This document shows positions 3,715-26,287 of a DNA stretch of 64,000 nt, piece after piece (position 1 is the stretch's first letter; each line of letters starts with the position of its first letter). The notes below the pieces were generated by a model. It ran no database searches, was not told where the DNA came from, and worked only from the letters and a program-made list of their open reading frames with translations. A program made the position numbers and the translations under genes. The stretch is from an uncultured Gemmatimonadales bacterium (GTDB lineage Bacteria; Gemmatimonadota; Gemmatimonadetes; Gemmatimonadales; GWC2-71-9): contig CAWBMQ010000003.1 of the NCBI GenBank assembly GCA_963789925.1, positions 39,320 to 103,319 of the forward strand, in the 5' to 3' direction.

Positions 3715-3740
3715 ACTCGACCTACCCGACTTACCCTTCG

Positions 3741-5629: not shown

Positions 5630-5650
5630 TCCTGCGCTCCAGCGTGACAG

Positions 5651-7093: not shown

Positions 7094-7241
7094 GCGTAAA
7101 CCTCTTAATTCACAATGAGTTAGGAGGACACACCCATCGGGCGACACCGGCCTGCTGGCAAAGTTGCTGTCACCCAAGATACCTCCCGATCGAACGCTCC
7201 GCTTGACGCCCGGAACCGGTTCAGGCTATTTCCCGCCCCCT

Positions 7242-9332: not shown

Positions 9333-9334
9333 AC

Positions 9335-9382
9335 AGTGAACGGCAAACGGCTGCTCTGTTCCCCTACGGTTTACCGTTCACT
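9335..9382. terminator. Hairpin between convergent ptrB and the HI0933-like gene
   Basis: AGTGAACGG (9335-9343) pairs perfectly with CCGTTCACT (9374-9382). The stem extends inward with two mismatches. The right arm lies in the last codons of the minus-strand gene. Confidence 0.4.
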
Positions 9383-10653
9383 TTCCGTTCAGCGGCTCCG
9401 AGCCCCGCAGCTCTCCCTGTGGCCCAGGCCCACAGGAAGTTGTATCCCCCGATCGGCCCGAATGCGTCCAGCATCTCGCCGCACATGAACAATCCGGGCG
9501 ACCGCCGACTCTCCATCGTTCGCGGGTCGACCTCACTCAGCGCCACACCACCGCCCGTGACCTCGGCCTTCTTGTAGCCTTCGTCGCCCGTCCACGGCAA
9601 CGGCATGTCCGCCAGGGCCGCCACCAGGCGAATCCGCTCCTCCCGCTTGAGCTGCGACGCCGGCGTCGAGCCGCTCACGGAGGCCCACTGGAGCAGCATT
9701 TCTGCGAGACGGTCCGGCAGCTCGCGCCGCACCAGGGTTCCCACGTGCACCGTCCCACCGGCGCGCAGCCGCGCTTCCCATGCCGCCGCATCGAGTTCAG
9801 TCCACTGCACCGTGATCTCCTGCCGGGCCCCACCCGCCAGCCGCGCCCGCACCGCCAGGTGCGACAGGTCCAGCACCGACGGCCCACTGTATCCCTTGTG
9901 CGTGAAGAGGAATCCGCCTGTCGCACTCCGGCGCTTCCCGTCCGTGCGTGCACTGAGCGTCACCGTGAGCGAGATGCCGGACAGCGCCGCATGCGCCGGC
10001 GCATTCGCCGTGAGTGGCGTGAGGGCGGGATACGTCGCGTGCATCTCGTGACCCAGCGCCGCAGCCACCCTGAGTCCGGTTCCATCGCTTCCGGTGCTGG
10101 GCACCGAGAGTCCACCGGTCGCCAGTACCACCGAACTCGCGGCAAGCCGTTCGCCGCCAGCCAGAATCACCTGCCAGTCATCACCCTCGACGGCAGGCGA
10201 TGCCAGGTTCTCCACCGTCGCCCCGAAGCGCGTCACCGCGCCCAGCTCGCGCGCGAGCGAAAGCAGCCCGTCCCGCACGTCACGCGCCTTGTTCGAGCGG
10301 GGAAAGAGCTTGCCGCTCTCCTCCTCGAGCGTCAGGTCGAGCCCGAGCCGATCGTTGAAGAAGCGGACCTGCTGCGGGAGCGGCCAGCTCCTGAGGATGT
10401 TGCGCATGCTGTTGGGGGATGAATCGGTGACGAAGCGTGTCAGGTCCGCCGATGACGGCAGGATGTTGCAGCGTCCGCCCCCGCTGATGAGGATCTTCCG
10501 TCCGCCATCCTGCGTGCGTTCGAGGAGCATCACTTCGGTCCCCGGTGAACGCGCCGCTGCCGACTCCGCGGCGAAGATGGCCGCCATCGTGCCTGCGGCA
10601 CCGGCACCAATGATGACGACGCGTCCGGATCGCGAAGTACGCATGGCAGTCAC
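9364..10653 (-). CDS. HI0933/YhiN-family NAD(FAD)-utilising flavoprotein
   Basis: Dinucleotide-binding fold VVIIGAGAAGTMAAIFAAE, the family motif GGRKILISGGGRCN, and a C-terminal GEMLDAFGPIGGYNF. An alternative ATG start lies at 10644. Confidence 0.85.
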   Translation of the reverse strand: MTAMRTSRSGRVVIIGAGAAGTMAAIFAAESAAARSPGTEVMLLERTQDGGRKILISGGGRCNILPSSADLTRFVTDSSPNSMRNILRSWPLPQQVRFFNDRLGLDLTLEEESGKLFPRSNKARDVRDGLLSLARELGAVTRFGATVENLASPAVEGDDWQVILAGGERLAASSVVLATGGLSVPSTGSDGTGLRVAAALGHEMHATYPALTPLTANAPAHAALSGISLTVTLSARTDGKRRSATGGFLFTHKGYSGPSVLDLSHLAVRARLAGGARQEITVQWTELDAAAWEARLRAGGTVHVGTLVRRELPDRLAEMLLQWASVSGSTPASQLKREERIRLVAALADMPLPWTGDEGYKKAEVTGGGVALSEVDPRTMESRRSPGLFMCGEMLDAFGPIGGYNFLWAWATGRAAGLGAAERKVNGKP

Positions 10654-10700
10654 GCGCGTAACCTAACGCGCTGTCCCTTCACCCCGTTTATCTTCGGCGC

Positions 10701-11921
10701 GTGCAGACGCCAGCACCGCTTTCTCCCTATGCCGTCGAGTTCGTGCTCCGCATGGGACGCGCGCTCCATCGCGCCGGGTTTTCTGCCAGCCGCCTCGAGC
10801 GGGCCATGGCCCGGCTTGCAGAGAAGCTGGGACTGCCATTGCCCCAGATCTTCTCGACGCCCACGGCCATCTACGCGGCATTCGGCTCCCTCAGGGACCA
10901 GAAGACCCATCTTCTTCGCGTCGAGCCCGGTTCCATCAGCCTCAGCCACCTCACCAGGCTGGACCAGGTCGTTACCGACGTCGTTGCCGGGACCGTGTCA
11001 CCCGAGGCAGGCCTGGCGCGTATCGACGAGATCGAGGCGGCGCCACCGGCGTATGGGAACGTGCTCATGGTCACGGCGTTCGCGCTCACGTCCGGCGCGG
11101 TCGCTCGCTTCCTCGGTGGCGGGATCAACGAGATCAGTGTCGGGGTCGTGATCGGCATCGTCACCGGCCTGCTCGCTGTCCTGGCCTCGAAGTGGCCGCC
11201 GCTGCTCGAGATCTACGAACCCGTCGCCGCATCCGCCGCGGCCTTCATTGCCGGCGTGCTGAGCGTCGCCTGGATGCCGTTCAACACCTCGACGGCGACC
11301 CTATCCGGGCTCATTGTGCTCATTCCCGGGTTCATGCTCACCATCGCCATCCGGGAACTCTCCACCCGTCACCTCGCTTCGGGCACCGCCCGGCTCGCCG
11401 GCGCCGGGATCATCTTCCTCGGCATCATCTTCGGTGTGGCACTGGGCAATCGCCTCGCGCTCGCGGCCGTCGGTCCAGTGCAACTTGCCCCGATCCAGCC
11501 GCTTCCGGAGTGGACCTTCTTCCTGAGCGCGCTGCTCGCCGGCCTCGCGTTCACCGTAATCCTCAAGGCCGAGCTCAAGGATGCGCCCTGGGTCGTGCTC
11601 TCGGGCCTGGTTGCCGTCGTTGCCGGCCGGGTGGGAGCGCAGGTCCTCGGACTGGAGCTTGGCGGTTTCGTCGGGGCCGCCGTGGTCGGCGTCGCCAGCA
11701 ACCTCTTCAGTCGCCTCCGCGACCGTCCGTCGATGGTGATGCTCGTCCCCGGGACGCTCATGCTCGTACCCGGCACCATCGGCTTCAGCAGCCTGTCGTC
11801 GCTGCTCGATGCCCAGGTCGTCCCGGCGGTGCAGACGGCATTCCGCATGGTGCTCACCGCGATCGCGCTGGTGGCCGGACTCCTGTTCGCCGACATCGTC
11901 TCACCGGAGCGCGACGTCTAG
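10701..11921 (+). CDS. Threonine/serine exporter ThrE-family membrane protein (DUF1212 and DUF3815 halves fused)
   Basis: GTG start. The N-terminal half has the YjjP-like opening (FVLRMGRALHRAGFSASRLERAM). About 10 TM segments follow. Confidence 0.8.
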   Translation: MQTPAPLSPYAVEFVLRMGRALHRAGFSASRLERAMARLAEKLGLPLPQIFSTPTAIYAAFGSLRDQKTHLLRVEPGSISLSHLTRLDQVVTDVVAGTVSPEAGLARIDEIEAAPPAYGNVLMVTAFALTSGAVARFLGGGINEISVGVVIGIVTGLLAVLASKWPPLLEIYEPVAASAAAFIAGVLSVAWMPFNTSTATLSGLIVLIPGFMLTIAIRELSTRHLASGTARLAGAGIIFLGIIFGVALGNRLALAAVGPVQLAPIQPLPEWTFFLSALLAGLAFTVILKAELKDAPWVVLSGLVAVVAGRVGAQVLGLELGGFVGAAVVGVASNLFSRLRDRPSMVMLVPGTLMLVPGTIGFSSLSSLLDAQVVPAVQTAFRMVLTAIALVAGLLFADIVSPERDV

Positions 11922-12055
11922 CCCAACCGCGCCTGGTTCCTCCCGGATTTTTCCCTCCGCTGTTGGCTCGTTGCTGCGGGTGCCTTCACGACCGGCCTGT
12001 GCACGATTCCCAGCCTTCCTCATCCCCCTCCGTCCATCACAACGGAGTGCCTGCA

Positions 12056-13967
12056 ATGTCCTTCACCCTTCTCCGGCGCCTCCTGCGCCAGTCCCGGTCC
12101 GTGGCGCTGGCCTGTGCGCTCGTTCCCGCGGTTCCCCTCGCGTACAATCCGGCGGCCACCGGGCGCATCGAGGGCACCGTCCGCGACATCAATGGCGCCG
12201 TCATCGCGGGCGTCGCAATCACCGTCGACGGCACCCGTCTCGGTACCTCCAGCGATCGCCTCGGCCGGTATGCCCTGCGCACAGGTTCCCGTGGGCACCG
12301 TCACCCTTCGCGCCACCCAGCCAGGGTGGAAGCCCGCCGTGCTGACTGGCATCGTGGTGCGCGCCGGACAGGTGACCGCGGTCGACGTGCGCCTGGTGGC
12401 GGCGCGGCCCGACGAGAAGGAGATGTCCTCGCGCGATGAGGTGGCCAAGATGGCCGCACCATCCAGCCTCCGCAGCAATGGCTACGTGTTGCCCCCGTCA
12501 GCGGCGCCGCAGTACCAGCGCGCACAGCCGTTCAACACCGAGGACTACCACAACTTCAAGGACAACGGCTTCCAGCGTCCGGCGACGAGCCCCCTGTCCA
12601 CCTTCGCGATCGACGTGGATGCTGCGTCCTACTCCAACGTGCGCCGCTTCCTCACCCAGGGTCAGCGACCGCCAGCCGATGCCGTGCGCGTAGAAGAGCT
12701 CATCAACTATTTCCCCTACGACTATCCCGATCCTACCGGCGGCGACCCGTTCTCCGTGACCACGGCGCAGATGCCGGCCCCCTGGGCCAACGATCATCGT
12801 CTGGTGCTGATCGGCCTGCAGGGCCGCCGCATCGACGCCCGTGAGTTGCCCCCGAGCAACCTCGTCTTTCTGCTGGACGTCTCGGGTTCCATGGCATCGC
12901 CCGACAAGCTTCCCCTGGTGCAGCGCGCCTTCCGCCTCCTGGTCGAGCAGCTCCGACCCCAGGACCGCGTGGCCATCGTCGTGTACGCGGGCGCCGCGGG
13001 ACTTGTCCTGCCGTCCACCCCTGGATCCGACAAGCGCACCATTCTCGCCGCGCTCGACGAACTGCAGGCCGGCGGCTCGACTGCCGGAGGCGAGGGCATC
13101 AAGCTCGCCTACCAGGTGGCGCAGCAGAACCACATCGCCAACGGCAACAATCGCGTGATCCTGGCCACGGACGGTGACTTCAACGTCGGCGTGTCCAGCG
13201 AGGGCGAACTGGTGCGGCTCATCGAGTCGAAGAAGCAGCAGGGCACGTACCTCACCGTGCTCGGCTTCGGTACCGGCAACCTCAAGGACAGCCGGATGGA
13301 AGCCCTCGCCGACAAGGGTAACGGCCACTACGCCTATGTCGACGACATCATGGAAGCACGGAAGGTCTTCGTGCAGGAGATGGGTGCCACGCTGGTGACC
13401 ATCGCGAAGGACGCGAAGGTCCAGGTCGAGTTCAACCCGGCGCAGGTCGCGGAGTACCGGCTCATCGGCTACGAGAATCGGCTCATGGCCGCCGAGGACT
13501 TCAACGATGATGCAAAGGATGGCGGGGAGCTTGGTGCCGGTCATGCCGTTACGGCGATCTACGAGATCGTCCTCGTCGGCAGGGGTGGCACTGGCACCAG
13601 CGTTGATCCGCTCAAGTACCAGGCTCCCCGCACCACGGGCGAGTCGTCAGACGAACTCTTCACTGTCAAGCTGCGCTACCAGCAGCCGACCGGAACCGGC
13701 GCCAGCAGGCTGGTCTCCCGCACGGTCCGTCGCGACGATGGCGCACGCGGCAACGAGAACCTGCGCTTCGCCGCCGCGGTGGCCGAGTACGGCATGCTGC
13801 TCCGCGACTCGGAGTACAAGGCACAATCGAACTGGGAGAACGTCCTTGTGCTTGCGCGGCAGAACCTTGGCAGCGATCCCGGCGGCTACCGCGCCGAGTT
13901 CCTGCGCCTCGCCGAGGTGGCGCGGGGAATGAGTGGTGGAGGGGACGATGAGGTGGGCGTCAAATAG
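12056..13967 (+). pseudogene. Secreted von Willebrand factor A (YfbK-like) protein with an N-terminal carboxypeptidase-regulatory-like domain; one frameshift near 12275
   Basis: The ATG at 12056 gives MSFTLLRRLLRQSRSVALACALVPAVPLA..GRIEGTVRDINGAVIAGVAITVDG..GRYALR in the frame of ORF 11192-12439. The text continues QVPVGTVTLRATQPGWKPAV... in the frame of ORF 12114-13967. The vWA MIDAS motif is LLDVSGSM, and the YfbK-type tail is present. Confidence 0.8.
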
Positions 13968-13992
13968 GGCGCCCGCCCTTATTATTCCCCGG

Positions 13993-14876
13993 GTGACCTC
14001 GACCACCCTCAGGACGCTCCTCCACTCACTGGTCGACTACGCCGGGCTTTTTCCCCGGCTGCGCTCGACATGCACCGGGCAGTCCACGAGTACGCGCTCC
14101 ACCGCGCGGGTGAGCACGCGTGGATGCTCGGTCATTTCATCCTGCCGGTCAGCCGTCTGGAGGAGTTTGCGATCTCGCACGCGGCACTTGGCCCTTCACC
14201 CGTCGGCGACGTCTGGCGGCTGAGTGTCCTGCCTGGTCCTGATCTCGGCGTCGCGCTCGCGGCCATTGCCGCCTTCAACAAGAGCACGACTGCCGTGGTC
14301 GACACCGTCGAGCTCAAGCTCGACGCGTTGCCCGACCTCGCCTCTGCTCTGGCGGGGGTCCCTCCGACGCTCACCACCTGGGTCGAGCTTCCCATCGACG
14401 ATGACCTCGCGGCGCGCCTCGCCGTGCTCTCCGCGGCCGGTGCCCGCGCCAAGGTTCGCACCGGGGGCGTCACGGAAGCCGCCTTCCCCGCCAGCCATGC
14501 CCTCGCGCGCTTCATCCAGGCATGCGCCGATGCCGGCGTGCCCTTCAAGGCCACGGCAGGACTTCACCACCCGCTCCGCGGCGAGTACCGGCTCACGTAC
14601 GAGACCGGCAGCCCGCACGGGATGATGTTCGGCTTCCTCAACGTCTTCCTGGCCGCCGCCTTTGCCCGGACCGGACTCACCCTGAAGGAACTGGCGCTCC
14701 TGCTCGAGGAAAAGGACGCGGACGCGTTTCAGTTCACCGAAACCACCGCCAGTTGGCGCGGTAAGACGGTATCACGCACCGAAATTTCGGCCGTTCGGCA
14801 CCACGTGGCCCTCAGCTTCGGTTCCTGTTCCTTCCAGGAGCCCGTGGATGACCTTCGTTCCCTCGGACTCCTGTGA
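13993..14876 (+). pseudogene. Conserved hypothetical protein, first gene of the fahA-selO operon; one frameshift at the C4 run 14053-14056
   Basis: The frame of ORF 13933-14223 reads ...LRTLLHSLVDYAGLFP. The frame of ORF 14070-14876 reads (PAALD)MHRAVHEYA.... One extra C in TTTTTCCCC joins them seamlessly. GTG at 13993 is a possible start. The stop overlaps the fahA start (GTGA). Confidence 0.55.
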
Positions 14877-16177
14877 CGCGCTTCCCGGTAGACGAAACCC
14901 ACGACGCGGCCCTCAGCAGCTGGGTCCCCTCGGCCAATGCGCGCGGCACCGACTTCCCCGTGCAGAACCTGCCGCTCGGCATCTTCCGCCGGCGCGGCAC
15001 GCACGACCGGCCGCGCATCGGCGTGGCCATCGGCGATGCCATCTTCGATCTCTATCACGCGGCCCAGGAGAACCTCGTCACCGGGGCCGATACGCTGCGC
15101 GAAGCCTGTGAGGCGACGACACTCAATGCCCTGATGTCGCTGCCGCATGCCCACCGGCTCCAGTTCCGGCACACCTTGAGCAGCCTGCTTCGCTACGGTG
15201 CGGATGCGTCCCGCACCCAGCTCGTGTCGCAGGAGGACGCCGAGATGCTGCTCCCTGCAGCCATCGGGGACTACACCGACTTCTACGCGTCCATCCATCA
15301 TGCAACCAACGTCGGGAAGATGTTCCGCCCCGACAACCCGCTCCTGCCCAACTACAAGTACGTGCCGATCGGCTACCACGGCCGCACGTCTTCCATCGTC
15401 GTGAGTGGCACCCCGGTGTCACGCCCCAGCGGGCAGACCCGCGACGACGCAGACCATCCGCCGGTGTTCGGCCCGACGCGCCGCCTCGACTATGAGCTCG
15501 AGGTGGGCTTCTTCGTGGGACGCAGCAACGCGCAGGGCGAGGCAGTGCCCATCGAGCACGCCGGCGCGCGCCTTTTCGGGCTGTGCCTCCTCAATGACTG
15601 GTCGGCCCGCGACATCCAGACCTGGGAATACCAGCCGCTCGGACCCTTCCTCGCCAAGAACTTCGCGAGCACCATCTCGCCATGGGTCGTGACGATGGAG
15701 GCACTTGCCCCGTTCCGCATGCCGGCCTTTGCGCGACCTGCGGGCGACCCCGAGCCGCTGCCGTACCTTGTCGATGAGGCCGACCAGGCCGGCGGCGGCA
15801 TCGACGTGAAGCTCGAGGTGCTCCTCTCCAGTGCCCGCATGCGCACCGAAGGAATGGCCCCGGTGGGCATCAGCCACTCCACGCTCGCCGATCTCTATTG
15901 GACGCCGGCCCAGCTCCTCGCGCATCACACGTCAAACGGCTGCAACATGCAGCCCGGCGACTTGCTCGGCAGTGGCACGGTTTCGGGTGAGGCGAAGGAC
16001 GCCCGGGGCTGCCTGCTCGAGCTCACCTGGCGCGGTGCCGATCCCATCCAGCTGCCGTCGGGCGAGAGTCGCCGGTTCCTCGAGGATGGTGACGAGGTGA
16101 TCATGCGCGGTGCCTGTGCGCGGGAGGGGTTTGTGCACATCGGCTTCGGGGAGTGCCGGGGTATCATTCGTGGATGA
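14873..16177 (+). CDS. fahA: Fumarylacetoacetase (fumarylacetoacetate hydrolase)
   Basis: N-terminal FAH domain text SWVPSANARGTDFPVQNLPLGIF. The C-terminal FAA-hydrolase fold shows DYELEVGFFVG, NDWSARDIQ.WEY.PLGPF and GDLLGSGTVSG. Confidence 0.9.
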   Translation: MTRFPVDETHDAALSSWVPSANARGTDFPVQNLPLGIFRRRGTHDRPRIGVAIGDAIFDLYHAAQENLVTGADTLREACEATTLNALMSLPHAHRLQFRHTLSSLLRYGADASRTQLVSQEDAEMLLPAAIGDYTDFYASIHHATNVGKMFRPDNPLLPNYKYVPIGYHGRTSSIVVSGTPVSRPSGQTRDDADHPPVFGPTRRLDYELEVGFFVGRSNAQGEAVPIEHAGARLFGLCLLNDWSARDIQTWEYQPLGPFLAKNFASTISPWVVTMEALAPFRMPAFARPAGDPEPLPYLVDEADQAGGGIDVKLEVLLSSARMRTEGMAPVGISHSTLADLYWTPAQLLAHHTSNGCNMQPGDLLGSGTVSGEAKDARGCLLELTWRGADPIQLPSGESRRFLEDGDEVIMRGACAREGFVHIGFGECRGIIRG

Positions 16178-17658
16178 GCGCAGCCGCCACGACCCTCCGT
16201 CCCATCGCGGGGCTCGACTTCGATAACAGCTATGCGCGGCTCGGCGAGCCCTTCGGAATTCGGGTCTCGCCGACGCCGCTGCCTGATCCCGTCCTGGTGC
16301 ACTTCAACACCGACGCAGCCGCGCTCATCGACCTCGACCCGGCCGAGGCGGCGCGTCCCGAGTTCCTGCGCCATGCCTCCGGTGCCGAGCCCATTCCCGG
16401 CAGTGATCCCGTCGCAATGCTCTACGCCGGGCACCAGTTCGGGGCTTTCGTGCCGCAGCTGGGGGACGGGCGTGCCATCCTGCTGGGCGAGGTGGTGAAC
16501 GCACGCGGCGAGCGCTGGGATCTCCACCTCAAGGGGAGTGGCCCGACACCTTTTTCCCGTGGGTTCGATGGCCGATCGGTACTCCGGTCCGCCATCCGGG
16601 AGTACCTGTGCGGCGAGGCACTTCACGCGCTCGGCATCCCCACCACGCGGGCGCTTTGCGTCGTGGGCAGCACGGAGCCGGTGCGCCGCGAGACCGTGGA
16701 GACGGCCGCGAGCATCATACGCATGGCACCGACCCACGTGCGCATCGGCAGCTTCGAGGTCTTTGCCTCGCGGGGACAGAAGGATGTCCTGCGCACGCTC
16801 GCCGATTACACGATCGAGCTCCACTTCCCGGAACTCATTGGACTCGAGGATCGCTACGCCCTCATGCTGGAGACGGTATCGCGGCGCACCGCGTCGCTGA
16901 TGGCGCGCTGGCAGGCCGTGGGGTTCACCCATGGGGTGATGAACACCGACAACTTCTCCATCACCGGCCTCACGATCGACTACGGTCCCTACGCGTTCAT
17001 GGAGGCGTTCGAGGGCAACTTCATTCCCAATCATTCCGACCCCGAGGGTCGCTACGCCTATAGCCAGCAGCCTGCCATCGGGCAGTGGAATGTGAGCGCG
17101 CTGGCGCAGGCGCTCCTGCCGCTCATGCCTCGCGAGCAAGCGGTGGCGGCGTTCGATACCTACGTACCGGCATGGGAAGAAGCCTACGGGGAGACCATGC
17201 GCAACAAGCTGGGCCTGGAGACGGCCCGGCCGGGCGACGACCAGCTCCTCGATGACCTGTTCATCCTGATGCATGCCGCGCGGGCCGATTGGACGATCAC
17301 CTGGCGTACGCTGGGTGGCATCACCGTCGACGACGGCGACAGCCGCGCCTTCACCTCCCAGTTCGCCGACCGCGCCGGGTGTGACGCCTGGCTCGCGCGC
17401 TACCGCCTGCGCCTGCGCGCCGAGGGGAGCGACGACAGTCGTCGCCGAGTCCGCATGGATGCCGTGAATCCCCGGTATGTGCTCCGCACCTGGATGGCAC
17501 ACGAGGCCATCACCGCGGCGCAGCGGAGCGACTTCAGCATCATCGACCGGTTGCTGCAGCTCCTGCGGCGTCCCTTCGACGAGCAGCCCGGCAACGACTC
17601 CTGGGCCACGACTCCTCCGACATGGGCGGGGTCTATCGAGCTCAGTTGCTCGTCATGA
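16174..17658 (+). CDS. selO: Protein adenylyltransferase SelO (YdiU family pseudokinase-fold AMPylase)
   Basis: Family text YAGHQFG.F.PQLGDGRAILLGEV, LHLKGSGPTPFSR..DGR.VLRS.IREYL..EA...LGIPTTRAL and HGVMNTDN.SI.GLTIDYGPY.FM. The ATG at 16174 overlaps the fahA TGA (ATGA). Confidence 0.9.
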   Translation: MSAAATTLRPIAGLDFDNSYARLGEPFGIRVSPTPLPDPVLVHFNTDAAALIDLDPAEAARPEFLRHASGAEPIPGSDPVAMLYAGHQFGAFVPQLGDGRAILLGEVVNARGERWDLHLKGSGPTPFSRGFDGRSVLRSAIREYLCGEALHALGIPTTRALCVVGSTEPVRRETVETAASIIRMAPTHVRIGSFEVFASRGQKDVLRTLADYTIELHFPELIGLEDRYALMLETVSRRTASLMARWQAVGFTHGVMNTDNFSITGLTIDYGPYAFMEAFEGNFIPNHSDPEGRYAYSQQPAIGQWNVSALAQALLPLMPREQAVAAFDTYVPAWEEAYGETMRNKLGLETARPGDDQLLDDLFILMHAARADWTITWRTLGGITVDDGDSRAFTSQFADRAGCDAWLARYRLRLRAEGSDDSRRRVRMDAVNPRYVLRTWMAHEAITAAQRSDFSIIDRLLQLLRRPFDEQPGNDSWATTPPTWAGSIELSCSS

Positions 17659-18263
17659 CTCAGCGCCGGGCGCGCTGGAAGGCCCTGTGGCGGCGGCTCG
17701 GCGGTACGCCCCCGGACGACGTCCTTACTTCGCTCGAGCGACAGTACTCGGCGGCTGGCCGGTACTATCATACGCTCGTCCATCTCGACGCGGTGCTCGC
17801 GAGCTTCGATCAGCTGCGCCACCTGGCGCCGAATCCGGACGTTGTCGAGCTGGCCCTCTGGCTCCACGATGTCGTCTGGGAGCCGATGAGAGATGATTGT
17901 GAGGCCCGGAGCGTGGAATGGGCAATCGACCACCTGCCCGCCCTGCCAGCCTCAGCCACCTTACCCGCCTTGATACTCGAAACCCGTCATCTCGCCGCGC
18001 CGTCCGTTGATCCCGACGCGGCCGTGGTCCGTGATGCCGATCTCTCTATCCTGGCGGCCGACGAACCCACCTTCGATGCCTACGAGCGCGCCATTCGCGC
18101 CGAGTACGCCATGCTCCCGACCGCGCAGTTCAACGCCGGGCGCACCAGGATCCTGGCCGACTTCGCCGGTCGAAGGCCGCTCTACTTCACGGCGACGGGG
18201 CGGTCCTGGGAGCCCCGGGCCCGCGCCAACCTGGCTCGCTCCCTGGTCCGCCTGAAGGCCTGA
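17655..18263 (+). CDS. HD-superfamily metal-dependent phosphohydrolase (COG4339-like)
   Basis: H...HD...D pattern: RYYHTLVHLDAVL, ELALWLHDVVWEP, RDADLSILAAD. The ATG at 17655 overlaps the selO TGA (ATGA). Confidence 0.75.
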   Translation: MTQRRARWKALWRRLGGTPPDDVLTSLERQYSAAGRYYHTLVHLDAVLASFDQLRHLAPNPDVVELALWLHDVVWEPMRDDCEARSVEWAIDHLPALPASATLPALILETRHLAAPSVDPDAAVVRDADLSILAADEPTFDAYERAIRAEYAMLPTAQFNAGRTRILADFAGRRPLYFTATGRSWEPRARANLARSLVRLKA

Positions 18264-18376
18264 TATCCTGCTGGCTCATGGCCTTGCGTCGGCGAAGTGC
18301 CTACTTTTCTCTCACTCCATGAGAGGGCCGCTGCTGATACATTTTGCCGCCCGTCCGTCGTCCCGGTGAACTAGCC

Positions 18377-19156
18377 GTGTACTACGTCCGGCTGTCATCG
18401 GGAGATGAGAAGACGTACCGGACCATCGAAGAGATGGTCTGGGACGTCGAGCTTGGCGTGATCAATCGCGAGGCGATGATCTTTCATCCTGCGACCAAGG
18501 CCTGGGTTCAGGTCACCCGTCACCCGCAGCTCGGATCCCGATTCATCACCGAGGAGGGCTCGGCCGAGGACATCGGGCTGGACTTCGATCTCCTCAGCGA
18601 CGCCGAGATCAAGGGCATGGAGCCGAAGGTGCCCGAGCCGCTCGCGCCGGAGCCGCTCGCACCTCCAATGGCGGACCTCGTCATCAACATGGACATCGCC
18701 ATTGACGCCGCGGAGCAGATGGCGGCCACACCCGAGGTCAAGCCGGCGGAGGGCCTCACGATTGCCGGTGAGTTCCTGACCCTCAAGGAACCGATCCCGT
18801 CGCTCCTGACCGACGGGCCGGTTACACCACCGAAACCACCGGTCCCGCCGGCACAGCCCACCCCAGCCGCCCCGACCGCCGGGCGTACACCGATTCCTTC
18901 TCCTCCCTCGTATCTCCCGGAACCCCTCCCCATCGACGGGGAGCTCGCCCCGCTCGCCGAGGACGGACTCGATTCGTCGGAATACAAGCCGCTCGAGTGG
19001 AAGCCCGAGCCGCGCTTCCGCGGACTGGCCTTGATCGGTGGAGCGGTTGCGCTGGTGCTGCTGGTGGCGACGGGCGCGTGGTTCGGCTGGCAGCGGTGGT
19101 CCAGCCGCTCCGCTTCGACGCTGCACACCGCCGAAGCCAGACACGACGCCGGGTGA
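18377..19156 (+). CDS. Hypothetical membrane protein: GYF_2-like N-terminal domain, Pro-rich linker, one TM helix
   Basis: (V)YYVRLSSGDEKTYRTIEEMVWDVELGVINREAMIFHPATKAWVQV resembles GYF_2/DUF4339 openings. A PEPLAPEPLAPP-type linker follows, then TM helix LALIGGAVALVLLVATGAWFGW. The ORF opens at 18344 (TTG); GTG at 18377 is preferred. It probably continues into the next ORF after a frame change near 19135. Confidence 0.55.
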   Translation: MYYVRLSSGDEKTYRTIEEMVWDVELGVINREAMIFHPATKAWVQVTRHPQLGSRFITEEGSAEDIGLDFDLLSDAEIKGMEPKVPEPLAPEPLAPPMADLVINMDIAIDAAEQMAATPEVKPAEGLTIAGEFLTLKEPIPSLLTDGPVTPPKPPVPPAQPTPAAPTAGRTPIPSPPSYLPEPLPIDGELAPLAEDGLDSSEYKPLEWKPEPRFRGLALIGGAVALVLLVATGAWFGWQRWSSRSASTLHTAEARHDAG

Positions 19157-19925
19157 CACCGCCGTGGCGCGCCAGGCGATTGATTCCGTGTCCGACCGCG
19201 ACCTCGCCGCGGCCATCGCTACACTGGCCGCAGCCGAGACGGCCGGCACCGGCGTCCGTCCCCCGTCCCGTCCGGGTCGACTGATCGGTGGCGGCGCCCA
19301 GCCGAGGGCCGTCGAGGGGCTCCGTCCCATGACGCCGATCGAACTGCGGCGCAGCTACGCCGCGGCATACGCCAATGCTCGCTCGGCGGTCGACTCCGAC
19401 CTGGCGCTCGGGGGCGTGTCGCGCCTCTTCTCCAATGCACGACTCACCAGCCGGGACAGCCTCCGTGCCGGCCGGCGCCTCATCACCTCGGCCCGCAACA
19501 TCGTGCGCGTGTATCACTCTGACGAGGTCCAGATCGAGCGCGCCTACCGGGATACCGTCACCTTCCAGGTGAACCGGATGGGCTGGACCAAGAGCCAGCA
19601 GGCCGACTGGAAGGCACGCGCCACGCTCAAGGAGAGCTACGAGGGCTCCCAGCTCACCGACTCGGTGCTCACCTATACCGACGATCTCTACACTCTGCTG
19701 CTCGGGCACTGGGGTGAGTATGAGATCAGCGGCAGCAGCATCAGCTTCGATGACCCGGCGGTCGCCAATGAGTACCAGGTGCTCGCGGCCTGGCTGCAGT
19801 CGCATATTGCGCAACTCGAAAACGAAGCCGACAACAGTTCGTCGTCGCCGACGTCGCGCCGCATCGCGCGCGCCCTCGGCGGCACCCGACCTCCTACCCT
19901 CCGGCGCAGCCGCGTCCCAGACTGA
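19038..19925 (+). CDS. Hypothetical protein, likely the extracytoplasmic C-terminal part of the preceding gene
   Basis: The meaningful text starts about ...PDTTPGDTAVARQAIDSVSD, immediately after the upstream ORF stops. No convincing start or RBS of its own is visible. It ends 19 nt before rho. Confidence 0.5.
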   Translation: MERLRWCCWWRRARGSAGSGGPAAPLRRCTPPKPDTTPGDTAVARQAIDSVSDRDLAAAIATLAAAETAGTGVRPPSRPGRLIGGGAQPRAVEGLRPMTPIELRRSYAAAYANARSAVDSDLALGGVSRLFSNARLTSRDSLRAGRRLITSARNIVRVYHSDEVQIERAYRDTVTFQVNRMGWTKSQQADWKARATLKESYEGSQLTDSVLTYTDDLYTLLLGHWGEYEISGSSISFDDPAVANEYQVLAAWLQSHIAQLENEADNSSSSPTSRRIARALGGTRPPTLRRSRVPD

Positions 19926-19944
19926 AAACTGAGCCCCTGAGCAT

Positions 19945-21090
19945 ATGACAACACCCGAAAGCCTCGGCGTCCTCGAACTCGACGGGCGCCAGGGTTCCCT
20001 GCGCCGGCAAAGCATGGCGTGGGACCCGCAGCGCGACGATGTGCGCGTGGACGAGCGCACCGTCCGTGAGTTCGGCCTGCGATCCGGCGACGAACTTTCG
20101 GGCGAGGTGCTGGCGGCCAGTCGCGGCAAGCCGCCCCTGCTCCGGAAGCTCACCGCGGTCAACGGGCGTGCCCCCGAGGAGGCCCGGCGCCGACCCGACT
20201 TCAACCGGCTCCCCGCGGTGCATCCGAGCCGGGTGCTCAAGCTCGAAGGCGCCGAGGCACCGGGTCGCAAGGGCGACATGACAGGTCGCCTGATCGACCT
20301 CATCGCACCGCTGGGCTTCGGCCAGCGCGCGCTGGTCGTCGCCCCCGCCAAGGCCGGCAAGACCACCGTGCTGCAGACCATTGCCGCCGGTATCGCGCAC
20401 AACCACCCGGACGCCCAGCTCTTCATCCTGCTGGTGGACGAACGGCCCGAGGAAGTGAGCGAGATGGAGATGGCGGGGGTGGGCGAGGTCATCTCCTCCA
20501 GCTTCGACCATCCCGCCGAGCGCCATGTGGCCCTCGCGGAGCTCACGGTGGAGCGCGCACGCCGCCGGGTCGAGGAGGGTCGCGATGCGGTCATCATCCT
20601 CGATTCCATCACCCGGCTGGCCCGGGCCTTCAACACCACCGAGCGCGGCACAGGACGCACTCTGTCCGGCGGACTCGACGCGCAGTCGCTCGAGACACCG
20701 AAGCGCCTTCTGGGCAGCGCGCGCCAGGTCGACCCGCGGGGTGGCTCCGGCTCGCTCACGATCATCGCCACGGCGCTGATCGACACCGGAAGCAAAATGG
20801 ACCAGGTGATCTTCGAGGAGTTCAAGGGTACCGGCAACAGCGAACTGGTGCTGAGCCGCGAGATGGCCGAGCGGCGCATCTATCCCGCCATCGACCTCAG
20901 GGCGAGCGGCACCCGGCGCGAGGAGCTGCTCATGTCGCCCGATCTCCTGGAAGCAGTGCGGCAGGTACGAGCGGGCTTTGCCGCGCTCGCACCTGCCGAT
21001 GTCATGCAGCGCCTCGTCAACGAGCTGAAGCGCTACCCCACCAACGCCGAGTTCGTCGCGTCGTTTGCGAAGGCTGGAGCGCGGGCCTAG
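19945..21090 (+). CDS. rho: Transcription termination factor Rho, short form (381 aa)
   Basis: Walker A VVAPAKAGKTTVLQ, LLVDERPEEV, DSITRLARAFN, and TIIATALIDTGSKMDQVIFEEFKGTGNSELVLSREMAERRIYPAIDL. An in-frame TGA at 19930-19932 blocks any N-terminal extension. Confidence 0.9.
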   Translation: MTTPESLGVLELDGRQGSLRRQSMAWDPQRDDVRVDERTVREFGLRSGDELSGEVLAASRGKPPLLRKLTAVNGRAPEEARRRPDFNRLPAVHPSRVLKLEGAEAPGRKGDMTGRLIDLIAPLGFGQRALVVAPAKAGKTTVLQTIAAGIAHNHPDAQLFILLVDERPEEVSEMEMAGVGEVISSSFDHPAERHVALAELTVERARRRVEEGRDAVIILDSITRLARAFNTTERGTGRTLSGGLDAQSLETPKRLLGSARQVDPRGGSGSLTIIATALIDTGSKMDQVIFEEFKGTGNSELVLSREMAERRIYPAIDLRASGTRREELLMSPDLLEAVRQVRAGFAALAPADVMQRLVNELKRYPTNAEFVASFAKAGARA

Positions 21091-21105
21091 GCCCTCCGAT
21101 CCTTC

Positions 21106-22167
21106 GTGAGGACCCTGGTGTTCTTCGTATCGCTGGCGGCCACGACGCTCCTGTGTCGCCCGCTGGCCGGCCAACAGCTGGTCGTGCGGGTGGTAGGCGA
21201 GGATGGCGCCCCCATCGCGAGTTCGGTCGTCGAGCTCTGGGCCCGCACCAAGCGGGTGGTCACCCTCAGCACGGGGGAGAACGGCCTCGCGAGCGTCCAG
21301 CGCCGGAAGCTCCCGTCACTCACGTCGGTTTCCGCGCGGGCAATCGGCTATCAGGCTTCCTCGGTCCCGCTGGGCCGGACGGACGCGCTCGAGATACGGC
21401 TCACGCGAGTCGTCCCCCGGATTCCGGACCTCGTCGTCGAGGCTCTGCCCCGGTACGAATGTCGGGAGGACGATCCTGTTGCGCGCGGCGTCTGGCAGGC
21501 TGCGACCACGCACTACAACCTCCTTCCGACTGAGCGCCGCTACTGGGCCGTCGGGCGCGGTATGGAGGAGACGGCGATCCTCTCGAAAGTCTCGTCACCC
21601 GACAGTTGGGGCACGACGCGCTGGGGAGTGAGCGGCCAGGCGCGGGCGCAAACCTCCCAATTCATCCGCGACTCGGGCTACGCCGTCCGCAAGAGGCCGG
21701 GACAATCGGTCGGCCTCATCGCCTCGACCGGCGGCGGCCCCTGGTGGTACCCGAAGCTCCACACCTGGAACGCCGATCACTTCGCCCGGCCCGAGTTCGG
21801 CCAGCTCAATGTGCTGTACATCGTGTCGTCGGGCCCGACCGGATGGACCATCGGGTTCTGCACGAAGGGCCCCAAGACACGCCCGGGCATTGCGGGCAGG
21901 CTGCGCATCGACAGCACCTATGCCTTCGCGCGGGCGGAATGGCAGTTCCTGACGCCCAAGCCGAAGGAGGATGCGGGAGGGGAGATCGTCTTCCTGACGG
22001 GGACTACGTCGGCACTGCTGCCATTGGTGAGCTACTTCTGGAAGCTGGCGGGTGGGTCGGAGGGCGATGATCCGCTCTATTACCGCGAATCGTTCCTGGC
22101 AGACGAGTGGACCATCAACCTCGACGATCCCGAGCGCGCCAGTTCCCCAGCGGAACCGGCGCGCTGA
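21106..22167 (+). CDS. Secreted hypothetical protein with a carboxypeptidase-regulatory-like N-terminal domain
   Basis: GTG start. Signal peptide MRTLVFFVSLAATTLLCRPLAGQ. Then QLVVRVVGEDGAPIASSVVELW....TGENGLASV. Confidence 0.6.
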   Translation: MRTLVFFVSLAATTLLCRPLAGQQLVVRVVGEDGAPIASSVVELWARTKRVVTLSTGENGLASVQRRKLPSLTSVSARAIGYQASSVPLGRTDALEIRLTRVVPRIPDLVVEALPRYECREDDPVARGVWQAATTHYNLLPTERRYWAVGRGMEETAILSKVSSPDSWGTTRWGVSGQARAQTSQFIRDSGYAVRKRPGQSVGLIASTGGGPWWYPKLHTWNADHFARPEFGQLNVLYIVSSGPTGWTIGFCTKGPKTRPGIAGRLRIDSTYAFARAEWQFLTPKPKEDAGGEIVFLTGTTSALLPLVSYFWKLAGGSEGDDPLYYRESFLADEWTINLDDPERASSPAEPAR

Positions 22168-22180
22168 CGACGACGCCAGC

Positions 22181-23276
22181 TCAGCCGTTGGCGCGCTCGA
22201 ATTTCTTCATGAACTCGACCAGCGCCTTCACCGCCGCCGCCGGCATCGCATTGTAGATGCTGGCGCGAATGCCGCCGGCCGACGCGATGGCCCTTGAGTC
22301 CCTCGAAGCCCGCCTTGGTCGCCTCAGTCACGAACTTGCTCTCCAGCTCATCGCTCGCGGTGCAGAAGCACACGTTCATCAGGGACCGGCTGCCCGGCAT
22401 GCGCCCGCGCCTTGAACATCCGCTCTGGTCGAGGTAGTCGTAGAGCAGCTTGGCCTTCGCCTCGTTGTGCTCCGCCATCGCCTTGAGCCCGCCCTCGGCC
22501 TTGATCCACTTGAACACCTCGCCCATCACGTAGATGCCGAACGTGTTGGGGGTGTTGTACATCGAGTTCTCCTTGGCATGACGTGCGGTATTGCAGCATC
22601 GTCGGCAGGTCCTTGCTGCCCAGTTCCACCAGGTCGTTCCGGATGATCACCAGCACCACGCCCGACGGCCCGAGATTCTTCTGGGCGCCGGCGTAGATCA
22701 GTCCGTACTTCCGAACGTCGAGCGGGCGGCTGAACATGTCGCTCGAGGTGTCGGCGATGAGCGGCACGCCCGCCGGCACCGGCGGCTCGCGTCATCCACT
22801 GGGTGCCGTAGATCGTGTTGTTCGTCGTGAGGTGCACGTACGCCGGATTGGCCGAATACTGTGATATCCGCGACCGGCGGGATGCGGTCGAACTTGGTGG
22901 CTCGCGGCACTCACAGCTTCATGCACGCTCCCTACCCGCTTGGCCTCCTTGACCGCCTTCTGCGACCAGACTCCCGTGACCAGGTAGTCGGCGGTACGGC
23001 CGGCCGGAAGGAGGTTCATCGGCACCATGGAGAACTGCAGCGACGCGCCGCCCTGGAGGAAGAGCACCGCGGTAACTGTCGTCGATTCCCGCCAGGTCGC
23101 GGCACGCCTGTCTCCGCTTCCTTGATGATCTTGTCGAACACCTTGCCGCGATGACTGTGCTCGCCGATACCGAGCCCGCTGCCGGCCACGTTCCAGATGT
23201 CCTGCTGCGCCTTCTTGAGCACGGGCTCGGGAAGGACCGCGGGGCCGGCGCCGAAGTTCCAGATGCGGTCGGTCAC
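22181..23276 (-). pseudogene. serC: Phosphoserine aminotransferase SerC, broken by about 9 frame changes
   Basis: Readable only by hopping across ORFs 23016-23393, 22792-23067, 22698-22910, 22526-22837, 22348-22779 and 22080-22562. The pieces read [17 protein letters not shown] / [13 protein letters not shown] / [20 protein letters not shown] / [11 protein letters not shown] / [15 protein letters not shown] / [34 protein letters not shown] / [12 protein letters not shown] / SRSLMNVCF / (S)VGGIRASIYNAMP..FMKKFERANG*. The GTG start at 23276 overlaps the serA TGA. Confidence 0.85.
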
Positions 23277-24490
23277 TTTTCGATCTCCGTCAGGTCGAGC
23301 GAGATGATGTGCGGATTGCCGCTGCGGATCGCCTGGAGCTGCTCCGGTGCCGGGCGTCCGTCGAGATGGATCCGCGCCAGTGTGGCCTGGCACCGTGGTA
23401 GATGATGTTCTCTACTTCCTCGACGTTGATGGCGCCGTCGGACAGGACCTCGAACACGTGCGCCAGCACGCCGGGACGATTGTGGTGCCGGACCGAGAGC
23501 ACGTGCGTCGCCGAGCTTCGCGCCAGGCGGTTGACGCAGTTGGGCACCATCCCCGCATCGCAGGAACTGCTGCACGATATGGATGGTCTCGTGCGCGATC
23601 GCCACCTGCGCCTGGTCGGTGGAGGCGCCGACGTGGTGGGTGCCGTAGACGCCCGGCAGCTTGACCACCTCGGGCGCAAATGTCCGCCGTGGCACCGCGC
23701 CGGCTCGCCCTCGTACACGTCGAGTCCTGCCCGGAGTCCGCTGCGTCTCGCACCGCCTCGGCCAGCGCCGCCTCGTCCACCACCGACCCGCGCGAAGTGT
23801 TGATGAGGTAGGCGCCCGGCCTCATGGCGCGCCAGGAATTCGGCGTTGACCAGGTGCTTGGTCTCGCCGTTGGCCGCGACGTTGATGGTCACCGCATCGG
23901 CGCGGCGCGCCACCTCGATCGGGGTCTCGGCGTAGGCGATCGCCCAGCCGGTTTGCCTCCTCATGCGTCAGGTTCCGCGACCAGGCGACGACTCGCATCC
24001 CGAACGCCTGCGCCCGCGCCGCGATCTCGCGCCCGATCTGGCCCAGTCCGACGATGCCGAGCGTGCGGCCATGGAGGCCGCGCGCCTTGGAGTACTCGCC
24101 CTTGTTCCACGGCCCCGCCCGGAGCTCGGCGGCCTGGTCCGGGATCCGCCGGTCGCAGGCGAGCAGCAGGCCCATGACCAGTTCCGCCACCGCGATGGAG
24201 TTCTTGCCCGGACAGTTGGCGACGAAGATGCCGAGGCTCGAGGCTGCCGGCACATCGATGGTATCGATCCCGGCACCGGCCCGGATCACCAGGCTCAGAC
24301 TCGCTCCCGCCTTGAGCGCCGCGGCGGTAACCGCTTGCCGCGGACGATGAGGATTTGGGGATCGACCGCGCTCCAGCGCCCCGGGCAGCGTGTCCGCGCC
24401 AAGGTCCGGCTGTGACTCGACCTCGCAGCCCAGCTCCTTGAGGCCGTCGATGCCGACCTTCTCGAATTTGTCAGCGATGAGGACGCTGCA
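23273..24490 (-). pseudogene. serA: D-3-phosphoglycerate dehydrogenase SerA (with C-terminal ACT domain), broken by about 9 frame changes
   Basis: Fragments across three frames read VLIADKFEKVGIDGLKELG / VDPQILIVRGKR / VTAAALKAGASLSLVIRAGAGIDTIDV...GRTLGIVGLGQIGREIA / GWAIAYAETPIEVARRADAVTINVA..ETKHLVNAEFLA / MRPGAYLINTSRGSVVDEAALAEAV / GLRAGLDVYEGEPA / FAPEVVKLPGVYGTHHVGAST / ACT-like THVLSVRHHNRPGVLAHVFEVL / [15 protein letters not shown]. The ATG at 24490 is itself out of frame with VLIADKF. Confidence 0.85.
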
Positions 24491-24504
24491 TGACGATTCC
24501 AGTC

Positions 24505-25740
24505 TTCAGCTCAGTTCGTGAACAAACAATCCGCTCCGCAGCTTGGGCTCGAACCAGGTGCTCTTGGGCGGCATGATCTCCCCCGCGTCCGACACCGCCA
24601 TGCAGCTGGTCCAGCGTCGTCGGGATACAGGGAGATGCCGAGCGCCATCTCGCCGCGCGTCACCCGGCGCTCGAGCTCCGCGGTGCCGCGGATCCCGCCC
24701 ACGAAATCGATCCGCTTGTCGGTGCGCGGGTCGCCGATGCCGAGGATCGGCCCCAGCACCCGGTCCTGCAGCAGGGACACGTCCAGCGAGCCGATCGGAT
24801 CGCCCCGGTCGATGCGTCGCCTGGTCCAGCTCCAGGCGCTACCACGCCGCCCTCGAGGAAGAACGCGAACGACCCGGGCCGCGCGGGGCGTGGGTCCTCG
24901 ACCCGCTCGAGGCGCCCCAGCGCCGCCAGTCTCGCGCGGAATTCCTCGGGCGTGAGTCCGTCCAGGTCTCGCACGACCCGGTTGTACGGAAGGATCGCCA
25001 GCTGCGTCCGACGGGAACAGCACCGCCAGGAACCAGTTGTACTCCTCGTCGCCGGTGTGGCGGCGGGTTCGCCGCGCGCCGCTCCTGGCCCGCCCGCCAG
25101 GCGCTCGCCGAGCGATGGTGCCCGTCGGCCACGTAGGCCAGGGGCACCTCGGCGAAGTGGCGCAGCAGCGGAGCCGGATCGGTCACCCGCCAGACCATGT
25201 GCCGCACCCCGTCGGGCGCCAGGAAGTCGTACAGCGGCGCGGCGCCTTCACCGCCGCAGCCACGTCGGCATTGATGGCTGTGCTCGGCCGATATGCCAGG
25301 AACACCGGCTCCGCGTTCGCGTCGAGCGTCAGCACGTGCCGGGTCCGGTCGTCTTCCTTGTCCTTCCGGGTCTTCTCGTGCTTCCGGATGACGTTGTGTT
25401 CGTAGTCATCCACGTGCACCGACGCCACCACACCCGTCTGGCCCCGTCCATCCATTTCCTGCCGATAGAGGTACACCGTGCGGTCGGCATCACGCAGCAG
25501 CGTCCCGTCCCGCAGGAAGCCCTCGAGGGCCGCCCGTCCCTGGGCATACACGCGAGCATCATAGGGATCGGTGCCGGCAGGCAGGTCGATGTCGGGGCGG
25601 CCGACGTGCAGGAAGCTTCGGGGGTTTCCGGCAGCCAGCGACGCCGCCTCCTCGCGATTGACCACGTCATACGGCACGCACGCCACCTGGGCGGCGAATT
25701 GCGGTGGCGGACGCAGGGCGCGGAACGGGTTGAGTCGCAT
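24505..25740 (-). pseudogene. DUF1015-family protein, broken by at least 5 frame changes
   Basis: MRLNPFRALRPPPQFAAQVACVPYDVV...VIRKHEKTRKDKEDDRTRH (ORF 25183-25848), then APLYDFLAPDG-VRHMVWRV..AYVADGHHRSASA (ORF 24839-25207). Next come VRDLDGLTPEEF (24660-24974), DPIGSLDVSLLQDRVLGPILGI..RIDFVGG (24511-25023) and the tail EIMPPKSTWFEPKLRSGLFVHELS* in another frame. It ends 14 nt upstream of serA. Confidence 0.8.
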
Positions 25741-25801
25741 TGGCGGGGGGATGCTAGGGGTAAGAGGAGGGAGCGTCAAGCGGCTAGATTTCAGCCCTAC
25801 C

Positions 25802-26287
25802 ATGAGCCCGGAGGTCGCAGTGCGCAAGCTGTACGTCGGCGCCATCATGCTGGCCCTCGTCTCCTGCCGGAAGGGCGACTCTTCCGCCCAGGTCTCAGGG
25901 TCCCCGGAAACCCTTACCTACGCGAAGGAGCTGGACGTGCACCTCGACCACATGACGAAAAAGCCCAGCGGCCTCTACGTCCTCGACGTGAAGGAGGGCA
26001 GCGGACCAGCGGTGGGCGCCGGCCAGACGGCCCAGGTGCACTACACTGGCTGGCTCGTCAACGGGGAGCAATTCGATTCCAGCATTGGCGGGACGCCCCT
26101 CGAATTCCCCGTTGGCCAGGCCAAGGTCATTGAAGGATGGGATGAAGGCGTGGCAGGCATGAAGGTGGGTGGCAAGCGCCGCCTGGTCATCCCGCCCGAG
26201 CTCGGCTACGGCGCCGCGGGTGCGGCCCCCGTCATTCCTCCGGGAGCCACGCTCGTCTTCGACGTGGAACTGGTGGGCATCCGATAG
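25802..26287 (+). CDS. FKBP-type peptidyl-prolyl cis-trans isomerase, lipoprotein
   Basis: Lipobox IMLALVSC. FKBP text V.YTGWL.NGE.FDSS......EFPVGQAKVIEGWDEGVAGMKVGGKRRLVIPPELGYG. The ORF opens earlier (25571) but overlaps the divergent DUF1015 gene there. Confidence 0.85.
   Translation: MSPEVAVRKLYVGAIMLALVSCRKGDSSAQVSGSPETLTYAKELDVHLDHMTKKPSGLYVLDVKEGSGPAVGAGQTAQVHYTGWLVNGEQFDSSIGGTPLEFPVGQAKVIEGWDEGVAGMKVGGKRRLVIPPELGYGAAGAAPVIPPGATLVFDVELVGIR

Follow-up and report, generated by a model that had tools for sequence, protein, structure and literature searches.

A frameshift-dense patch over the DUF1015-serA-serC operon of a soil Gemmatimonadales contig, very probably a consensus error of long-read metagenome assembly

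The 64-kb stretch of Gemmatimonadales DNA analyzed here (the window) carries on its minus strand a DUF1015 gene (24506-25740), a short spacer (24492-24505), a serA-like gene encoding an ACT-domain 2-hydroxyacid dehydrogenase (23273-24491) and the phosphoserine aminotransferase gene serC (22181-23276). As an earlier note on this DNA had stated, these three genes can be read only through many frame changes, which we found both by three-frame translation and with a codon-usage frame HMM. Their neighbors are intact, again as claimed. The plus-strand rho gene (19945-21090) encodes a protein identical to the Rho of L001, a collinear metagenome contig with 95.6% DNA identity that served as the reference for the indel counts and in which serC (362 aa) and serA (403 aa) are intact and DUF1015 is partial. 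The next plus-strand ORF (21106-22167; 353 aa, no family match) has the same length as its L001 counterpart, and the flanking FKBP and GGDEF genes are also uninterrupted.

Base-level alignment to L001, together with a multiple alignment that took in L001, L082, L083, L084, L085, L086, and L061, placed 29 window-private indels in an unstranded patch of 3,064 bp (22175-25238), namely 24 one-base insertions, two two-base insertions, and three one-base deletions. Insertions thus outnumber deletions by 26 to 3 (P = 1.5e-5), and none of the events exceeds 2 bp. The patch occupies 36% of the 8.47-kb alignment to L001 but holds 29 of its 31 indels (binomial P = 3e-11), the collinear flank having two in 5.4 kb, and indels are about 80 times as frequent in it as in the background of the window. 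The high density described in the earlier note therefore stands, although its figure of one indel per 150-200 nt was somewhat too low, the alignment giving one per 106 bp. The limits of the patch are sharp and ignore the genes. One indel lies just 3′ of serC (22175, 6 bp outside the gene), nine lie in serC, eleven in serA, one in the spacer (a 2-bp insertion at 24494-24495), and seven in DUF1015 between 24601 and 25238. There the patch stops, about 500 bp short of the start of the gene at 25740, and the 5′ 500 bp (25239-25740) are clean. Contrary to the earlier description, the dense zone and the operon have different limits, the zone starting 3′ of serC, in the spacer, and ending inside DUF1015. 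The frame change noticed right after the serA start codon is a T inserted at 24487, two bases past the ATG (24491-24489).

Removal of the indels restores three full-length proteins that are 93-95% identical to those of L001, the closest relative, although for DUF1015 a partial protein was compared and one TAG is left. The gene identities given earlier hold. As written, serC consists of fragments matching PF00266, and residues 1-362 of the L001 SerC map onto the locus in three frames (tblastn). After correction of its nine indels, SerC is a protein of 362 aa without a stop, 94.5% identical to L001, that scores above the curated cut-offs of NF003764 (500.6 bits versus 253) and TIGR01364 (476.8 versus 443.6). 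Fragments of the serA-like gene match PF02826 and PF00389. The corrected protein (403 aa, no stop, 93.3% identical to L001) has the domain set 2-Hacid_dh, 2-Hacid_dh_C, and ACT, and its best NCBIfam match is PGDH (TIGR01327), at 270.5 bits, below the equivalog cut-off of 454. Thousands of intact homologs of 401-410 aa exist, the best being 94% identical, and JGI names homologs D-3-phosphoglycerate dehydrogenase. The linkage to serC supports this role without proving it. PF06245 matches both the DUF1015 fragment of the window and its L001 ortholog, and the partial protein obtained after correction shares 92.7% identity with that of L001 and has a single TAG at a conserved tryptophan. This codon (TGG to TAG) lies in a garbled stretch at about 24817-24848 on the minus strand, between two insertions, where six private substitutions fall within 21 nt; the motif WWLLTMD is kept there in seven of seven relatives. 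The statement that all premature stops were created by the frame shifts is therefore contradicted by this one codon, which stays after the indels are removed.

For comparison, 160 loci centered on serA were fetched. Among these loci and the SerA homologs compared, none was a closer relative than L001 (95.6% at the nucleotide level) or the best SerA (94% at the amino acid level). None of the 29 indels recurs in the six to seven related Gemmatimonadales contigs compared, every one of which has intact genes, and the operon genes are also intact in every relative recovered from short reads. Differences from L001 in the operon fall at third codon positions in 53-70% of cases, much as in the flanking genes. 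This bias, together with the full-length corrected proteins at 93-95% identity, speaks against a long-standing pseudogene decay.

A very recent inactivation of the operon by many small insertions, leading to serine auxotrophy or a bypass, was the biological alternative raised in the earlier note. Genuine bacterial pseudogenes of genome reduction or auxotrophy do resemble the patch in being frameshifted conserved biosynthetic genes beside intact neighbors, and some observations fit this explanation: one nonsense codon is independent of any shift, no second copy of serA or serC was found in the 64-kb window, and there is a modest excess of private first- and second-position substitutions on the window branch. 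Indeed, private substitutions on this branch are more numerous in the operon than the flanks predict (93 versus 84 in the operon, 43 versus 72 in the flanks; P = 0.012). Only 47% of them lie at third positions, as opposed to 73% on the L001 branch (P = 0.0007). However, an excess of 26 insertions over three deletions, with no larger deletion, is the reverse of the deletion bias that Mira, Ochman and Moran reportedly described for bacterial pseudogenes in 2001. Furthermore, 29 indels against a few dozen extra substitutions make a ratio far too high for neutral decay, the boundaries of the patch are independent of the genes, and every short-read relative has kept the operon. We therefore consider it very unlikely that the indels are real.

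It is still less plausible that programmed ribosomal frameshifting, or an RNA editing that removes the extra bases, allows the genes to be expressed in spite of the shifts. The good conservation of the protein text between shifts is the sole point in favor of such recoding. At least 26 independent sites would have to be recoded, but their contexts share no common motif; moreover, three sites would need a base to be added rather than removed, and we know of no such system in bacteria. No shift site is conserved in any of the six to seven relatives, and this lack of conservation effectively refutes a recoding of the sequence as written, to which we give next to no credence.

The insertions themselves have a distinctive character. 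Of the 24 single-base insertions, just two lengthen a homopolymer by touching an identical base, where about 11-12 would be expected from random insertion. A homopolymer-type sequencing error is thereby ruled out. In 13 of the 24, the added base equals an allele of relatives in the adjoining column, GAC[G]CC at 22175 being an example of such doubling. An analytic null predicts 4.4-6.3 matches (P = 0.0002-0.004), and a simulation in which bases were inserted at random and realigned gave 3.9 on average and never more than 7 over 12 runs. On these allele-match and homopolymer statistics, the simulation included, we rejected random insertions, be they noise or mutation. The remaining 11 adjoin columns where none of seven relatives has the inserted base, so the doubling of alleles does not visibly explain every insertion in the alignments. 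On the plus strand, the inserted base is G or T 19 times and C or A five times (P = 0.007). The spread of the insertions over the three codon slots (14, 6, and 4) is marginal and depends on gap placement.

These numbers also bear on whether the patch could be raw or barely polished long-read sequence from one or very few reads, its indels being random noise instead of merged alleles. An indel density of about 1% is within the error range of a single read, and the strand asymmetry of the inserted bases, which is not predicted by a mixed-strain consensus, would be expected if one strand had been read. The garbled 21-nt stretch with its TAG fits as well, as do the excess of window-branch substitutions in the operon and their low share of third positions. 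Nevertheless, roughly one in two noise insertions should lengthen a homopolymer, and noise should not match the neighboring alleles of relatives. Raw Nanopore reads tend toward base loss, unlike the insertion excess of the patch. In addition, most of the 16 window-private amino acid changes in SerA are conservative (K/T, T/S, A/S, I/V, R/K) and look like ordinary divergence. Taken together, read noise is an unlikely source of the patch. The poor or low-coverage data suspected in the earlier note may well be part of the picture, but the insertions are not random, since they avoid homopolymers and double neighboring alleles.

The indels are thus private, insertion-biased, homopolymer-avoiding, allele-doubling, and bounded independently of genes, a pattern that supports the artifact alternative raised before. 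We propose that the 3.06-kb patch is a consensus or polishing error of a long-read metagenome assembly and not the DNA of the organism, a reading that we hold to be very probable on the strength of the alignments. In the bacterium, a soil member of the Gemmatimonadales, the DUF1015-serA-serC operon is most likely intact. Insertions that avoid homopolymers and place a second allele beside the first point to a consensus built from mixed strains, and strain mixing is accordingly the cause suggested by the pattern. Over the patch, where read depth was probably low, the consensus would have drawn on reads of at least two strains occurring together. Some of the polymorphic sites would then have been given both alleles in succession, and these tandem alleles would appear as one-base insertions that shift the frame without lengthening homopolymers. 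The inserted bases, as alleles of related strains at the adjoining site, resemble what collapsed-strain (microdiversity) consensus errors produce. Sharp limits are likewise expected of such errors wherever a second strain starts or ceases to contribute reads to the pile-up, and the patch has them. Two strains would then have been present in the source sample. A mutational process would have no reason to insert the next-base allele of other strains, which further argues against a real loss of the operon. If this soil population had nonetheless just lost the operon in a burst that put some 26 one-base insertions into 3 kb, which appears highly improbable, the loss would entail serine auxotrophy and a so far unknown local process that generates insertions by copying alleles of neighboring sites, possibly an aberrant recombination with a divergent strain.

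Outside the patch, the frame HMM and Pfam matches revealed about seven frameshifts in 61 kb, mostly +1, in agreement with the earlier estimate of one per several kb. Three of them interrupt Pfam domains, and comparison with L001 confirmed one. The confirmed case is a single G inserted at 19136 on the plus strand, by which a 514-aa gene that is one ORF in L001 becomes two ORFs; the added base is the one that L083 has in the following column and so fits allele doubling. A +1 frameshift at 12270-12290 (plus strand, frame HMM) splits the CarboxypepD_reg domain of a vWA/YfbK protein, with profile positions 2-42 before and 45-81 after the change of frame. Another +1 event, at 52975-52990 on the minus strand (frame HMM), splits the LigD primase-polymerase domain (PF21686, positions 1-170 in one frame and 175-253 in the next), and a second likely frameshift lies near 54669 on the same strand, between the LigD_N and ligase domains. 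Finally, a deletion-type frameshift at 60330-60345 (plus strand, frame HMM) interrupts a DUF72 gene, whose first frame covers profile positions 1-163 of 217 and whose C-terminal part is read in another. The assembly therefore seems to be indel-prone overall, with the genome-wide background of frameshifts that is known from Nanopore-only MAGs. In such MAGs, small assembly-private indels split conserved genes (seen as fragmented gene calls in the IDEEL test), as they do in the patch. However, the classic Nanopore error is a change of homopolymer length that is evenly spread, whereas the patch packs non-homopolymer insertions into 3 kb.

Nanopore-only MAGs were set against short-read contigs in a comparison that took in L070, L071, and L008. 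Two independent Nanopore-only MAGs of other species (L070 and L071) contain dense allele-doubling patches dominated by insertions, with clean flanks. L070 has about 16 frame changes at 9120-13775; in the part aligned to relatives (8651-12350), 13 columns are private insertions and none is a private deletion, and the inserted base matches an allele in seven of 11 single-base insertions. L071, aligned to L006, has 115 insertions and 22 deletions, dense up to about 15.5 kb and absent thereafter, with an allele match in 15 of 16. In contrast, short-read contigs of the same locus have zero to three frameshift-like sites per 21 kb. The recurrence of the patch signature in unrelated window genes (LigD, DUF72, vWA, and the 514-aa gene) and in two other long-read MAGs is again at odds with real pseudogenes. 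The comparison MAGs, from Microflora Danica, were built from Nanopore reads alone with metaFlye and one round of Medaka, and high microdiversity is reported for the soil samples of that project (PMC12313526). Nanopore bins below about 40-fold coverage are said to need short-read polishing against fragmented genes (PMC9262707), and more frameshift errors have been reported in the literature for soil ONT assemblies. In our literature search, frameshift errors, zero-coverage regions, and the need for polishing were treated in general terms, and no description of allele doubling, with both alleles in tandem, was found. The likeness of the patterns suggests that the window itself comes from a Nanopore-type long-read assembly.

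From a biological perspective, the patch is of little interest. Serine auxotrophy should not be inferred for this organism, the indels being private, insertions in 26 of 29 cases, and set against relatives with intact genes, and the three genes should be counted as intact in metabolic reconstructions. For quality control, it indicates that long-read metagenome assemblies can hold kilobase-sized patches at about 80 times the background indel rate. Patches of this kind can be mistaken for clusters of pseudogenes and would lead automated calls of pseudogenes or auxotrophy astray. Their signature can be tested from the assembled letters: private insertions, few of them in homopolymers, whose base is the allele of a relative at the adjoining site. 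In two of 12 other long-read loci, a patch also lies over the DUF1015-serA-serC operon, which may be due to chance, as the loci had been fetched centered on serA.

The protein text of SerC, SerA, and DUF1015 is good but is spread over all three minus-strand frames between about 22180 and 25740, as seen in the three-frame translation and the ORF list. A codon-usage hidden Markov model (the frame model), for which the long ORFs of the window served as the training set, placed 17 minus-strand frame changes in 22182-25242 and mostly tracked whole genes outside this interval. These three lines of evidence confirm the claim of an earlier note that the operon can be read only by frame hopping. An exact look-up with the window's Rho protein led to a JGI metagenome contig, L001 (8,443 bp), which aligns collinearly with window 17071-25542 (95.6% identity) and whose gene calls give an intact Aminotran_5 gene of 362 aa, a 403-aa 2-hydroxyacid dehydrogenase with an ACT domain, and an incomplete third gene, DUF1015 according to Pfam. 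Base-level alignment with L001 revealed 31 indels, 29 of which lie in a patch at 22175-25238 (clustering P = 3e-11): one in the spacer 3′ of serC, nine in serC, 11 in serA, one in the serA-DUF1015 spacer, and seven in DUF1015. There are none in the 500 bp of DUF1015 coding sequence at 25239-25740; the two others, in the 5.1 kb upstream of the patch, are an in-frame difference of 3 bp and a 1-bp insertion at 19136.

Sequence comparison makes a consensus or polishing artefact of long-read metagenome assembly the best explanation of the patch, and the operon is very probably intact in the organism itself. Most likely, reads of more than one strain would have been collapsed at modest depth, giving a faulty consensus that retains both alleles of a polymorphic site next to each other and hence one extra base. 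Using the L001 SerA as a query in genome and metagenome collections, we obtained further collinear relatives, L082 at 90% nucleotide identity and L083, L084, L085, L086, and L061 at 84-87%, and these scans placed the lineage in the Gemmatimonadales. No relative closer than 95.6% was found in the collections scanned. In the multiple alignment with these relatives, all 29 patch indels are private to the window. The search for a second serA or serC, which the earlier note had proposed to make elsewhere, was run on the 64-kb window and found neither there.

The key evidence on the origin of the patch is the indel spectrum. Insertions make up 26 of the 29 indels (P = 1.5e-5), and no indel is longer than 2 bp. 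Of the 24 single-base insertions, only 2 lengthen a homopolymer, against about 11-12 expected for randomly placed bases; homopolymer miscalling was rejected on this figure. In 13 of the 24, the inserted base equals the allele of at least one relative at the directly adjoining column; for example, GACGCCAG in the window corresponds to GACCCAG in L001 and GACGCAG in L082. An analytic null predicts 4.4-6.3 such matches (P = 0.0002-0.004), and 12 simulations, in which random bases were put into the corrected sequence and realigned, averaged 3.9 matches with at most 7; together with the homopolymer count, these comparisons exclude random noise. A consensus that keeps both alleles of a polymorphic site adjacent would have this look. 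Two features are not accounted for by such a consensus: 11 of the 24 insertions adjoin columns without the inserted base in any relative, and the inserted bases are strand-asymmetric (G or T 19 vs C or A 5, P = 0.007). The insertion excess and allele matching are not plausible for mutation; real recent decay of the operon, the indel-only inactivation with serine auxotrophy or a bypass that the earlier note had set beside an assembly fault, is very improbable, and recoding of the shifted frames is less credible still.

Removal of the private indels from the window sequence yields a SerC of 362 aa (94.5% identity to L001) and a SerA of 403 aa (93.3%), both with no in-frame stop, and a partial DUF1015 (342 aa compared, 92.7%) with one. 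The earlier statement that the shifts create all premature stops thus holds for serC and serA, but DUF1015 keeps a TAG. This stop replaces TGG within a 21-nt stretch carrying six private substitutions, where WWLLTMD is kept in 7/7 relatives. Against NCBIfam models, the corrected SerC clears the equivalog cut-offs; the SerA-like protein falls short of that for PGDH, and its homologues are named D-3-phosphoglycerate dehydrogenase by the sources. Differences between the window and L001 fall at third codon positions in 53-70% of cases, much like in the flanking genes. With L083 as the outgroup, private substitutions in the operon show a modest window excess (93 on the window branch vs 84, against 43 vs 72 in the flanks, P = 0.012), and those on the window branch are less often at third positions (47% vs 73%, P = 0.0007). 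Of the 16 amino-acid changes private to the window's SerA, most are conservative, and part of the substitution excess may therefore be ordinary divergence.

Similar patches occur in other assemblies. We applied the frame model to about 100 related high-GC loci; short-read contigs gave 0-3 frameshift-like sites per 21 kb, the background of the method, whereas several Microflora Danica MAG loci were far above it: L008 (14 sites, spread out), L070 (16, all in 9120-13775), and L071 (40, nearly all in 1950-15341). In L070, from a different species, DUF1015, serA, serC, and the convergent genes are shredded and the flanks are clean. Alignment of L071 with L006 (93.5% identity) gives 115 insertions against 22 deletions in L071; they lie densely as far as about 15.5 kb, with none beyond. 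In both loci, every private indel within the parts that align to relatives is an insertion (21:0 columns in L071, 13:0 in L070); these insertions match a neighbouring allele in 15/16 and 7/11 cases, respectively, and seldom extend a homopolymer. The Microflora Danica MAGs derive from high-microdiversity soils and were assembled from Nanopore reads only, with metaFlye and one Medaka round (PMC12313526); in earlier work by the same group, Nanopore bins below about 40-fold coverage needed short-read polishing against fragmented genes (PMC9262707). Faults of long-read metagenome assembly include frameshift errors and kilobase zero-coverage regions (PMC13087279). Among the 12 other long-read MAG loci, two have their own dense insertion patch over the same DUF1015-serA-serC locus (L070 8640-14090, L071 1950-15341). 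This coincidence may be due to chance, given that serA was the centre of every fetched locus, or may reflect cross-mapping, with conserved core genes drawing reads from related strains. L071 (CAWBZK010000004.1, MFD03066.bin.2.245) is labelled 'uncultured Acidobacteriota', yet its 93.5% identity to the Gemmatimonadales MAG L006 extends over 18.9 kb, which points to either a mis-binned contig or a wrong label on the MAG. Loci L039 ('Planctomycetaceae') and L045 ('Phycisphaerales') also encode SerA at Gemmatimonadales-like identity (68-69%).

Outside the patch, the frame model flags about seven more frameshifts over 61 kb of the window, and five or six of these are +1. This background of about 0.11 indels per kb, against 9.5 per kb in the patch (about 80 times higher), agrees with the much lower rate previously noted elsewhere. 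The frame model alone points to a probable +1 shift near 1357 (minus strand), in a large surface protein that is repetitive and Ig-like (1143-3157), and to a possible shift near 14060 (13961-14060, plus), where the gene following the vWA protein begins. Pfam bears out the domain splits: near 12280 (plus), CarboxypepD_reg is split at profile positions 42|45 at the N-terminus of the vWA/YfbK protein (12054-13960), and near 52983 (minus), LigD_Prim-Pol is split at 170|175. The latter lies in the DNA ligase D gene (52685-55173, minus; LigD_N, ligase, and primase-polymerase domains), which is read in three frames with another likely shift near 54669. The single G insertion at 19136 (plus) separates ORFs 18344-19156 and 19038-19925, one 514-aa ORF in L001; although outside the patch, it is also allele-doubling, the next column being G in L083. 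Of the shifts outside the patch, only the one near 60340 (plus), in a DUF72 gene (59765-60463), is of the deletion type. With these further frameshifts and confirmed domain splits, the assembly is thus indel-prone.

The gene order DUF1015-serA-serC was found in all Gemmatimonadales loci checked (window 19945-25740 and most of the related loci L002-L054). DUF1015 has no known function, and such constant association with genes of serine biosynthesis might point to one. In L001, the serC and serA reading frames share 4 bp; there and in the window, rho and a family-less 353-aa ORF lie convergent, downstream of serC. At the other end of the operon, the longest FKBP ORF (25571-26287, plus) would overlap the 5′ end of DUF1015 (24506-25740, minus) by about 170 bp; the true FKBP start is probably further downstream, because the frame model begins plus-strand coding there only at about 25785.
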